IMG/VR virus record: IMGVR_UViG_2734482571_000007
Direction: 5' to 3' (one strand)
DNA from: a virus
Taxonomy: Duplodnaviria; Heunggongvirae; Uroviricota; Caudoviricetes
DNA length: 39,690 bases
Positions 330 through 1,477 of this stretch are shown one piece after another. Each line of letters opens with the position of its first letter. Position 1 is the stretch's first letter. The notes under the pieces were generated by a model. That model made no database searches. It was not told the DNA's origin and worked only from the letters and a program-made list of their open reading frames with translations. Made by a program: the position numbers and the translations under genes.

Positions 330-1067
330 TCATTCACTCTCTTTCAAACCAGTTTTAACTGTTTGTGGTTTTGGGTAAGGCTGGACTTTGAATAGCTTTG
401 TGTTAAGGCGTTTTCTGGCTCTCTTGTCCAGAAACCGGATGTAACGAAACTGACGGAATTTATGAACACTGGCTCTGTCGATATTAGCCCGCAGATGTTC
501 ACCTCGCTGTCCTCCTCGTTTGATTGCATTCTTGCAAATCTCGTGATACCACTCGCCATCAAGTTCATAGAATGTTGTTTCATGACTGCCTACATAATCA
601 AAATTGCTTGCCTGGTACACGACACCAAGACAGCCACAACGCTCATCTGCAAACGACTGAACCCACTGCACCTGCGGATAAAGTTGTCTGATTAGTTTGA
701 GCGCGTAACTGATTGCCCTTGATTCGGAGTTTCTCGGCATACAGTCATGCAGCCATAACCGGTTAAGCTCCATATATTCGCGGTTCTGCGTGCCAGTTAC
801 GACGCGTGCACCATTGTTTGGATTAAGGGCATAACCCCATTGCATTACGCCAACCAGCTCCCGTTCTGAAAATATGCCCAGATGAAGGTAGGAATTATTT
901 ACGAAACGATGGCTGTAATGTTTATTGACGACGACCAGCCGGGCCAGCCAGCAACTTATTGTCTCAACCCGTAACTCACGGGAGCCATAACCGACGATAT
1001 TGTCGTTATAGTGAATAAGTTCAGGCGTGCTGATGATACGGGATGTAACTTGCTTTCTGTTCCCCAC
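330..1067 (-). CDS. mom: Mom-like DNA modification protein; start uncertain (possibly GTG near 1067, inside the com overlap)
   Basis: Long ORF directly downstream of, and overlapping, a Com-like zinc-finger gene at the prophage end, as in Mu com-mom. The six-frame ORF 330..1262 overlaps com in another frame, so the first ~65 codons are probably not translated. Confidence 0.65.
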
Positions 1068-1221
1068 GACAGGATTTCCTTGTGTATGTGGGGTGCTCTG
1101 TGGCGCTCTGAGATGTGATTTGATTGAGGGTTTTACAGCGCGGACATTTAACTTCCAGATAACTGAAGCTGGCTCGTGCCAGTAGCTTGTTACAATGTCG
1201 GCACCGTATGTTTCGATACAT
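1021..1221 (-). CDS. com: Com-like zinc-finger translational activator of mom (66 aa from the internal Met, [14 protein letters not shown]...EVKCPRCK...EHPT)
   Basis: C-x2-C ... C-x2-C spacing and the IRC..CNKLL / CPRCK / EHPT motifs match Mu Com; strong AGGAGG Shine-Dalgarno before the ATG at 1221. Confidence 0.8.
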
Positions 1222-1264
1222 GGCCGCATAACCTCCTGCTTTGTTGTTGATATCTTTATCACTC

Positions 1265-1289
1265 AATCGATCGACAAAAACGATCGATT
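1265..1289. promoter_or_regulatory. Perfect 9-bp inverted repeat AATCGATCG-N7-CGATCGATT with two GATC Dam sites, upstream of com
   Basis: Palindrome read directly from the sequence; it lies in the com leader and next to a 200-bp AT-rich divergent intergenic region. Mu mom is controlled through upstream GATC sites. Confidence 0.4.
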
Positions 1290-1477
1290 TGATTTATTTA
1301 ATTGATACAACAAATAACACGAAATGTCATTAGCGAAAATTTATGAGTTTGATCACTAATTTTAAACGGTGCTGTAACGCATAAGTGCTGAATGATTGTA
1401 CATTTGAATACCGCAAAGCAAACAAATCAACTAATTTATAGAAGTCAATTGGTTAATTGCCAGCGTAAGAGGCTGCT

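Follow-up and report, generated by a model that had tools for sequence, protein, structure and literature searches.

The 39,690-nt stretch of DNA analyzed here (the window) very likely carries, on the right-hand end of a Mu-like transposable prophage of E. coli, a com–mom regulatory cassette under the two-level control of phage Mu, in which Dam and OxyR would act on the DNA and Com on the RNA. The window is a Mu-like prophage that encodes a Mor/C-family activator, GemA and other Mu-type genes. An earlier reading based on the letters alone (the sequence-only reading) had proposed methylation-sensitive and Com-dependent control like that of Mu, but with a different layout. Homology at each sequence-level feature tested argues for the control; the different layout holds only for the position of the operator, which lies closer to com and lacks the C box and GATC I, and not for the GTG start of mom or the palindrome. 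Since Mu has both the double-GATC palindrome and the mom GTG, the region is largely ordinary save for the closeness of the operator to com, and we would describe it as an added member of a known system with modest variation in layout.

The two genes and the com leader are as follows.

330-1067, minus strand: mom coding sequence, 245 aa, GTG start; RefSeq coordinates identical
1221-1021, minus strand: com coding sequence, ATG start, 66-aa zinc-ribbon protein; RefSeq coordinates identical
1237-1232, minus strand: com Shine-Dalgarno AGGAGG, 10 nt before the ATG, conserved in relatives
1241-1249, minus strand: (CAA)3 repeat in the presumed com leader

The com product matches Pfam Zn_ribbon_Com (PF10122, 1.3e-12) and the PHROG 'gpCom control of modification', carries four Cys residues arranged as CxxC...CxxC, and is about 45% identical to Mu Com. 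The mom product matches Pfam Mom (PF25680, 1.6e-77) over the full length of the domain as well as PHROG 1384, and shares about 78% amino-acid identity with Mu Mom. com lies directly upstream of this modification gene and overlaps it by 47 nt, compared with 50 nt in Mu, where the com–mom pair likewise has overlapping reading frames and occupies the same genome end. com would be translated from AGGAGG-N10-AUG. In strain CI5, two further CAA units are present in the repeat at 1241-1249, with the com ribosome-binding region otherwise unchanged; such variable spacing would fit a transcribed leader and not a promoter spacer.

A double-GATC palindrome upstream of com

The elements upstream of com are listed below.

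1265-1289, not stranded: palindrome AATCGATCG-N7-CGATCGATT, perfect 9-bp inverted arms, 44-68 bp upstream of the com ATG
1269-1272 and 1282-1285, not stranded: Dam sites of the palindrome, a GATC pair 13 bp apart
1270-1284, not stranded: candidate proximal OxyR-type half-site ATCGTTTTTGTCGAT, 7/10, overlapped by a GATC at each end
1301-1315, minus strand: candidate distal OxyR-type half-site ATTTGTTGTATCAAT, 7/10 of the consensus, centre 31 bp from the palindrome centre
1351-1354, not stranded: third GATC, 69 bp upstream of the pair, probably outside the operator
1290-1477, not stranded: AT-rich intergenic region between divergent genes, 32% GC (window average 53.7%)
1478-1771, plus strand: divergent ORF, RefSeq start 1511

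The palindrome with two GATC sites that the sequence-only reading had placed upstream of com was found at that position, as was the adjoining AT-rich divergent region. It consists of AATCGATCG (1265-1273), the spacer ACAAAAA (1274-1280) and CGATCGATT (1281-1289). GATC occurs in the first 2.5 kb only at 1269, 1282 and 1351, and among the 120 GATC sites of the window the palindrome holds the only pair 13 bp apart. Even when three mismatches were allowed, the palindrome was the only match in the window to ATCGATCG-N7-CGATCGAT, with 0.1 expected. Four diverged E. coli prophage variants carry it without change while their flanks differ, it can be aligned to Mu, and a GATC pair with 13-bp spacing is found again ahead of com in most of the enterobacterial lineages sampled. 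Among viral contigs with the exact palindrome pattern, 30 of 59 have com adjoining, with the pattern about 45 bp (44-51 bp) from its start; the other 29, which are without com, are by our rough estimate about as many as chance would give for a 16-base pattern in such a collection. Perfect inverted repeats of 9 bp are in themselves nothing unusual here, since the window contains 17 hits counting overlaps, or about 12 separate ones, versus 3.5 expected. Even so, the view that the palindrome arose by chance in AT-rich intergenic sequence appears effectively refuted by these conservation data, that is, by the invariance among the four variants, the homology to Mu, the near-identity to agn43, the 30 independent contigs and the low expectation in the window.

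The sequence-only reading took the palindrome for a difference in layout, but it has a counterpart in GATC II/III of Mu, with the same 13-bp spacing and the common sequence AAATCGATCG-N8-GATCGATT; its arms are perfect in the window and match at 8/9 in Mu. As in Mu, a second OxyR-type half-site lies 31 bp upstream. Half-sites were scored against the 10-position consensus ATAGnTnnnAnCTAT. At offset -31, the mean half-site score over 15 lineages was 6.2/10, the second-highest value, against a background of 2.85 (sd 0.95), and in the O157-type variant conservation starts at the distal half-site. Scores of 7/10 are common in the AT-rich stretch, with five within 220 bp, and because the DNA is AT-rich the half-site score alone is weak evidence. 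The spacing of the pair (31 bp) matches the 31-32 bp geometry of reduced OxyR, for which a spacing of about 32 bp with scores of 7-10/10 is the functional range (PMC4856963).

Outside Mu-type phages, a close likeness is seen in the Dam/OxyR phase-variation operator of E. coli agn43 (flu), whose core reads ATCGATCG-TTTNTNT-CGATCGAT; the window differs from the GATC II/III core at two spacer bases only. In agn43, two GATC sites likewise lie 13 bp apart in one half-site, and a second half-site lies 31-32 bp upstream. OxyR is a methylation-sensitive repressor there (PMC2909390). Only agn43 has a further GATC 19 bp upstream within the distal half-site, whereas the distal half-site of the window contains none. 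The operator therefore holds two GATC sites, versus three in both Mu and agn43. We considered the GATC at 1351 as an equivalent of Mu GATC I and rejected it; its spacing (69 bp) is wrong, and it is missing in O157-type relatives that retain the palindrome. In P22 gtr, similarly, GATC pairs 13 bp apart each lie inside a single OxyR half-site, and the promoter-proximal half-site overlaps the core promoter, with GATC at -46 and -33 (PMC2909390). Three or four half-sites with alternative OxyR positions produce a switch in P22 gtr and Salmonella opvAB, whereas a single pair is apparent in the window.

By homology to these systems, com–mom is probably under Dam/OxyR transcriptional control. The palindrome would be one half-site of an OxyR dimer, gATCG-N7-CGATc, in which both outer tetranucleotides are Dam sites, and the second half-site would lie 31 bp upstream, at 1315-1301. 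On unmethylated or hemimethylated DNA, reduced OxyR would be bound and the promoter shut; once both GATC sites are fully methylated by Dam, OxyR would be excluded and transcription permitted. We found no methylome evidence on these GATC sites in the published literature.

Promoter layout and other possible roles of the palindrome

One candidate promoter element was placed on the com strand.

1261-1251, minus strand: candidate -10 region TGATAAAGATA, weak and not conserved (compare the Mu -10, TAAGAT)

A sigma-70 consensus scan of 1000-1800 gave no site on the com (minus) strand and hence no consensus-based promoter position; for the plus-strand ORF, promoter-like sites were seen at 1457-1486. 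That ORF, which had no Pfam or PHROG match, stands in place of gin and the G segment of Mu. Pmom of Mu combines its weak -10 with a poor -35. Within the candidate -10 region of the window, TAAAGAT (1258-1252) is not kept in the O157-type or CI5 relatives, and the consensus scan gave no promoter there. The O157-type relatives have GAGAAAGGCAT at this point, and other short-layout relatives have TATACT, TATAGT, TATCAT or TAGATT 4-6 nt past the palindrome. As the candidate -10 is poor and differs among close relatives, the position of the promoter is uncertain.

Compared with Mu (for which start-point positions were taken in part from the annotation of AF083977), the operator lies about 26-27 bp nearer com; the proximal GATC is 51 nt from the com ATG, with 47 nt in between, instead of 78 nt. 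The window lacks three features of Mu, namely the C box GATTATgccccaATAACC, the T6 run and GATC I. This short layout is common to the window family, Edwardsiella L007 and the viral contigs L112-L114, L029 and L080. The operator probably overlaps the core promoter. In such a compact arrangement, it would cover the -35 and spacer of a weak promoter, with the -10 at about 1261-1251 and the start at about 1245, and OxyR would exclude RNA polymerase directly, instead of acting from upstream as in Mu. Whether the short layout amounts to a distinct architecture, in which a Dam/OxyR operator occupies the -35 and spacer region, like that of gtr or agn43, while the C input has been lost or relocated, seems to us possible but rather doubtful.

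The window encodes a Mor/C-family activator (28840-29262; PF08765, 6.7e-31) that is 40% identical to Mu C. We found no Mu-type C dyad TTAT-N6-ATAA between the GATC pair and the -10 region, and the box CCGCAAA...CCCC, common to the lys, I and P late promoters of the window, is not present at Pmom. With neither box in place, Dam/OxyR control as set out above gives no account of the late activation of the operon.

Mu C binds a dyad-symmetric site. This site overlaps the -35 element (PMC4461284), and the palindrome might be read as the target of a phage regulator such as the Mor/C-family activator and not of host OxyR, with the GATC sites incidental or serving for tuning. At only 40% identity to Mu C, the homologue could differ in specificity; measured from the com ATG, the palindrome centre lies at 56 bp and the Mu C box at about 65 bp, and no other candidate activator site is visible. 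On the other hand, the window has a single copy of the palindrome, with none at the lys, I or P promoters; the same core is found at agn43, a host gene without a phage activator; and the element and its -31 partner are kept among phages with only 35-70% identity between their Com proteins. We consider a phage-regulator site unlikely.

A role as a nucleic-acid hairpin, either a plus-strand (antisense) terminator or, if the promoter were further upstream, a hairpin in the 5' leader of the com mRNA, would agree with several features. The palindrome is called terminator-like on the plus strand by a scan (a 9-bp stem followed by TGATTTATTT), the leader RNA is predicted to fold it at about -16 kcal/mol, and the interval from the palindrome to com is without a convincing promoter; the agn43 promoter lies upstream of the equivalent element. 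Across lineages, however, it is the GATC pair with its 13-bp spacing that is conserved and not the stem, whose arms are reduced to 6 bp in L007, L113 and L114 and are imperfect in Mu. The com strand has no U-run after the stem, and good -10 hexamers lie directly past the element in short-layout relatives, which places the element in the promoter and not in the transcript. With no upstream plus-strand gene that would need a terminator and a stem that is not conserved, we judged termination unlikely, and a hairpin function of either kind appears quite improbable. Dam/OxyR control remains our preferred reading of the palindrome.

The mom start and the predicted Com-responsive hairpins

The following elements surround the mom start.

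1067-1065, minus strand: mom GTG start codon, also the RefSeq start, aligned with the curated GTG of Mu
1077-1081, minus strand: mom Shine-Dalgarno AAGGA, 9 nt before the GTG, in the hairpin loop or inner helix
1062-1093, minus strand: predicted translation-inhibition hairpin, with CCCCAC (1093-1088), a 20-nt loop and GUGGGG (1067-1062)
1106-1093, minus strand: candidate Com-binding hairpin GCGC[CACAGA]GCAC, with a CC-N3-GAG motif in its hexaloop, 5' of the inhibitory hairpin

mom has no ATG near the com stop, and the GTG at 1065-1067 is the nearest candidate start, as the sequence-only reading had stated and as both the RefSeq start and the list of mom-frame codons bear out. ATG, GTG and TTG codons in this frame occur just at 1262, 1229, 1067 and 845, and then further downstream, and the GTG at 1067-1065 is the sole candidate near the com stop (1021). 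This start is no departure from Mu, in which mom also begins with an aligned GTG inside the same CCCAC/GUGGG stem. In related contigs that carry other downstream genes, homology breaks 3-4 codons past the GTG.

The mom frame is also open from 1262 through all of com (310 aa) and has an ATG at 1229, two bases past the com Shine-Dalgarno, so that mom could be imagined to start in a long frame (1262..330) or to be expressed by frameshifting or coupling from com. However, the long frame is interrupted by stop codons in com in the O157-type relatives and in Mu, the ATG at 1229 is too near AGGAGG to be served by it, and the Pfam Mom domain begins just 30 aa after the GTG at 1067, itself aligned with the curated Mu start. 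We take the 310-aa ORF to be accidental because relatives have stops in frame, and a start of mom other than at GTG 1067 to be highly improbable.

For initiation at this GTG, folding of the RNA at the com–mom junction predicts a start-sequestering hairpin at 1062-1093. The CCCCAC/GUGGGG stem is present in both the minimum-energy and centroid folds, where the GUG and the ribosome-binding site are helical; the minimum-energy fold pairs AAGGA in an inner helix. In part against the sequence-only reading, mom does have a conventional ribosome-binding site, AAGGA, at 9 nt from the GTG; site and start codon nevertheless lie within the predicted hairpin. The Mu counterparts are similarly arranged: in the curated record AF083977, mom starts with GTG at 35907, and its ribosome-binding site (35896-35899) is in a hairpin loop. 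The inhibitory loop is 20 nt in the window versus 11 in Mu, and the window adds the inner helix over the ribosome-binding site.

The energy of the hairpin was not significant against shuffled sequences, either in the window (z = -0.98) or in Mu (-0.60), and the argument therefore rests on the comparison of lineages. The Mu hairpin is supported by the literature despite its z of -0.60 (PMC6483171). Across 12 distinct lineages, the five core pairs of the inhibitory stem are invariant, with loops of 11 to 20 nt. In the adjacent candidate Com hairpin, three of the four stem pairs are changed on both sides across the same number of lineages; the hairpin of the window has a C-A mismatch at the second pair. 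In this comparison, 95% of cells were paired, compared with 23-57% in slid controls. In Mu, the Com recognition motif CC(N)2-3GAG sits in a hexaloop and the mom GUG lies in the stem of the adjacent hairpin (PMC6483171). The window reads GCC-ACA-GAGCAC-CCCAC...GUGGGG, in register with Mu, whose GTG likewise lies inside the CCCAC/GUGGG stem after a Com hexaloop hairpin with CC-N3-GAG. In a search of 1-2600 at a permissive threshold, no Rfam family covered the com–mom leader.

Taken together, homology and covariation point to translational control of mom by Com. The GUG at 1067, in the 3' arm, and the AAGGA ribosome-binding site would be locked by the CCCCAC/GUGGGG hairpin, and Com would bind the adjacent hexaloop hairpin (CC-ACA-GAG) and open the inhibitory one.

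Reuse of the cassette and significance

Com-controlled genes other than mom are known from related phages. In FluMu (hin1523), Pnm1 (nma1821) and B3 (ORF48), the place of mom is taken by a DNA-modification gene with com ahead of it (PMC3299994); these phages carry Com-controlled DNA methyltransferases, whereas the window has a genuine Mom. Among related contigs, the com and hairpin cassette of the window type also stands in front of a C5 and an N6/N4 methyltransferase, and the point of fusion lies directly past GUG-GGG-AAC.

If the tentative reading of the short layout as a distinct architecture were true, Com and the methylation of two GATC sites would be the main controls on the expression of DNA modification, which could be heritably bistable in lysogens. 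By comparison, the host gene agn43 switches heritably between ON and OFF, and mom has no known phase variation (PMC2909390). On the same reading, the unit of operator, com and hairpin would be a portable cassette that recombines just past the GUG and serves Mom, C5 methyltransferase and N6/N4 methyltransferase alike.

In this prophage family, which has sequence matches in 233 of 5,426 complete E. coli genomes, the functional cores of the textbook circuit (Dam and OxyR on DNA, Com and a hairpin on RNA) are conserved almost to the base. The comparison also gives a spacing rule for GATC, in which distances of 13, 18-19 and 31-32 bp all result from a pair of OxyR half-sites 31-32 bp apart, and which could help to find further Dam/OxyR switches. 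Modest leads on how phages time the expression of toxic DNA-modification genes may come from the compact layout and from the use of this cassette by methyltransferases.

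The right end of a Mu-like prophage

The 39.7-kb window represents an E. coli prophage of the transposable, Mu-like kind, in reverse orientation. Mu-type genes on its minus strand include those for a Mor/C-family activator, GemA, lysozyme, the I protease of Mu, and the P baseplate protein. When window 300-1800 was queried, identical sequence was found in many complete E. coli genomes. Depending on the strain, the flanking host gene is tcyL, xdhB, flgL, citF, or one encoding an Ig-like protein; transposition is expected to place the same prophage in different host genes in this way. 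The left end of the window corresponds to the right end of the phage (terminal part at about 199-300, host junction near 199), and here lie com, encoding a small zinc-ribbon protein, and the DNA-modification gene mom:

1221-1021, minus strand: com
1067-330, minus strand: mom

Three TTTGATAC(C/T) repeats at about 218-292 are likely transposase-binding sites. A divergent ORF on the plus strand (1478-1771; 97 aa, shortened to 86 aa if the RefSeq start, 1511, is used) takes the position of Mu gin; it had no match in Pfam or PHROG, and O157-type prophages have another, frameshifted ORF in its place. Perfect inverted repeats at 1853-1881, 1909-1936, and 2507-2541, between convergent or adjacent genes, are likely terminators; the last overlaps a weak, sub-threshold Rfam match to Esr41 (22 bits, where the gathering score is 102; E = 0.33). 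The perfect palindrome TTGATAACTAAACTTAGTTATCAA (37887-37910), located between the genes for transposase and repressor, is a candidate early-region operator.

A probable Dam/OxyR-type operator upstream of com

The palindrome AATCGATCG-ACAAAAA-CGATCGATT occupies 1265-1289, which places it 44-68 bp upstream of the ATG of com; its two GATC sites start at 1269 and 1282. The sequence-only reading had described a double-GATC palindrome there beside an AT-rich divergent region; the coordinates agree, as does the GC content of 1290-1477 (32% versus 53.7% overall), a segment that ends at the divergent ORF. Perfect 9-bp inverted repeats are not rare per se in the window (about a dozen distinct ones versus 3.5 expected). 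Among its 120 GATC sites, only those of the palindrome form a pair 13 bp apart, and the palindrome pattern has a single match even when three mismatches are allowed. The palindrome is unchanged in four diverged E. coli variants with differing flanks, and a scan of IMG/VR for ATCGATCG-N7-CGATCGAT retrieved 59 contigs, in 30 of which com starts about 45 bp (44-51 bp) from it.

Judged by its sequence, this palindrome is the Dam/OxyR core of Mu and agn43. Mu GATC II and III, 13 bp apart, read AAATCGATCGgtaatacaGATCGATT, as compared with AAATCGATCGtttttgtcGATCGATT in the window, and the agn43 operator of E. coli K-12 (ATCGATCGtttatatCGATCGAT) departs from the window sequence at just two positions, both in the spacer. 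In P22 gtr, each 13-bp GATC pair lies within one OxyR half-site, the sequence for one OxyR dimer, and methylation abolishes OxyR binding (PMC2909390). The half-site consensus ATAGnTnnnAnCTAT, in the form gATCGnTnnnAnCGATc, has a GATC at either end, which gives a spacing of exactly 13 bp. Half-sites around the GATC pair were scored out of 10 in 15 com-linked lineages. The mean score was 6.9 for the GATC-pair half-site itself and 6.2 at offset -31 from it, against a background of 2.85 (sd 0.95) over all offsets. The candidate distal OxyR-type half-site of the window, ATTTGTTGTATCAAT (1315-1301), scored 7, and conservation between the window and the O157-type variant begins just upstream of it. 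At opvAB, reduced OxyR is reported to function with a half-site spacing of about 32 bp and scores of 7-10 of 10 (PMC4856963). The same half-site geometry accounts for the other GATC spacings that various lineages show upstream of com: in the distal half-site, a third GATC at the 3' end gives 18-19 bp, and one at the 5' end gives 31 bp. AATAACC occurs 8 nt beyond the shared GATCGAT in both the agn43 upstream region (L025 456-470) and Mu Pmom, the com-mom promoter (L002 945-962), so the likeness of host and phage operators reaches into the Mu C-box region.

Short and long promoter layouts

The lineages compared form two classes by how far the proximal GATC lies from the com ATG.

Layout classes upstream of com
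Long, 71-83 nt: Mu, D108 and relatives; Pantoea and Symbiopectobacterium prophages
Short, 51-57 nt: window family; Edwardsiella lineage L007; viral contigs L112-L114
Short, half-site centre 58 nt from the com start: contigs L029 and L080

What the short layout lacks, roughly 26 bp, corresponds in Mu to the segment with the C box (GATTATgccccaATAACC), a T6 run, and the -35 region. A good -10 hexamer (TATACT, TATAGT, TATCAT, or TAGATT) stands 4-6 nt past the palindrome in most short-layout relatives; counted from it, the proximal half-site would cover about -35 to -21 and the distal half-site would lie near -59. An operator so placed would exclude RNA polymerase directly, an arrangement more like that of gtr than that of Mu. 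The hexamer at this place in the window family is poor (TGATAAAGATA) and variable among close relatives, and no consensus promoter was detected at the window Pmom. The presumed com leader contains (CAA)3 at 1241-1249 and, with two extra units, (CAA)5 in strain CI5 (L003). This length polymorphism sits between the operator and the com ribosome-binding site, and the extra units fit a transcribed leader at this point.

The window's homologue of the Mu late activator C shares only 40% identity with Mu C. A box, CCGCA(A/G)A-N5-8-CCCC, is common to the presumed late promoters of lys, I, and P (28800-28835, 20625-20660, and 11030-11060, minus strand) and may be the binding site of this C homologue; the CCGCAAA...CCCC box was absent upstream of com.

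The mom start and the com cassette

The Mu mom start is an upstream ATG in the GeneMark-based RefSeq record and GTG 35907 in the curated AF083977, which places the ribosome-binding site at 35896-35899. In the window, start codons of the mom frame occur only at 1262, 1229, 1067, and 845, bearing out the earlier choice of a GTG as the nearest start. The frame is open throughout com (330-1262, minus strand; a 310-aa ORF, with an ATG at 1229); this looks accidental, because O157-type relatives and Mu have stop codons there.

According to PMC6483171, the Mu mom GUG lies in the stem of the inhibitory hairpin, and Com recognises CC(N)2-3GAG in a hexaloop, that of a short hairpin immediately upstream. 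Mu has AUGC[CUGCGA]GCAU-CCCAC-N11-GUGGG and the window has GCGC[CACAGA]GCAC-CCCAC-N20-GUGGGG; the two elements are in register when the Mom proteins are aligned. A start-sequestering hairpin, for which RNA folding had been suggested, was indeed predicted by RNAfold: the GUG lies within the 3' arm of a six-pair stem, and the AAGGA ribosome-binding site is paired in an inner helix. Hairpin energy was not exceptional against shuffles (z = -0.98), but neither was that of Mu (z = -0.60), making energy an uninformative measure here. In the 12 distinct lineages compared, the inhibitory stem keeps its five core pairs unchanged around a loop of 11 to 20 nt, and three of the four Com-hairpin pairs are altered on both sides (AUGC/GCAU, GCAC/GUGC, GUGC/GCAC); 95% of cells were paired, versus 23-57% with partners slid. 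The single C-A mismatch in the window's Com hairpin is a restored pair in the close relative L051. These comparisons argue that the mom start of the window has the Mu arrangement.

Some IMG/VR contigs carry the same cassette of palindrome, com, and hairpin with a different gene in place of mom.

Modification genes behind the cassette
L029, 8340-9610: C5-cytosine methyltransferase, by similarity
L035, 1601-2870: C5-cytosine methyltransferase, PF00145 on the L035 protein
L043, 8090-9360: C5-cytosine methyltransferase, by similarity
L080, about 3315-2050, minus strand: N6/N4 methyltransferase, PF01555

In each, homology to the window breaks 3-4 codons past GUG-GGG-AAC. This swapping is independent support for the Mu-type mom start and hairpin arrangement; FluMu, Pnm1, and B3 are earlier examples of Com-linked methyltransferases in the position of mom (PMC3299994). 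About 43 Mom homologues (62-85% identical; L006, L009, L014-L017, L020, L021, L023, L133-L166) have no detectable com upstream, suggesting that mom is often under some other control.

The literature searched held no binding or expression data for this prophage family, and we infer mechanism for the window com-mom from homology and comparative patterns. The flagged region is homologous to the com-mom control region of Mu, which is well studied, and is not a new system. Mu-like control with a different layout had been proposed; the GTG start and GATC palindrome prove to be conserved cores of the Mu system, and what stands of the different layout is a modest difference: a compact, putative operator-on-promoter arrangement with two GATC sites instead of three and no recognisable C box.
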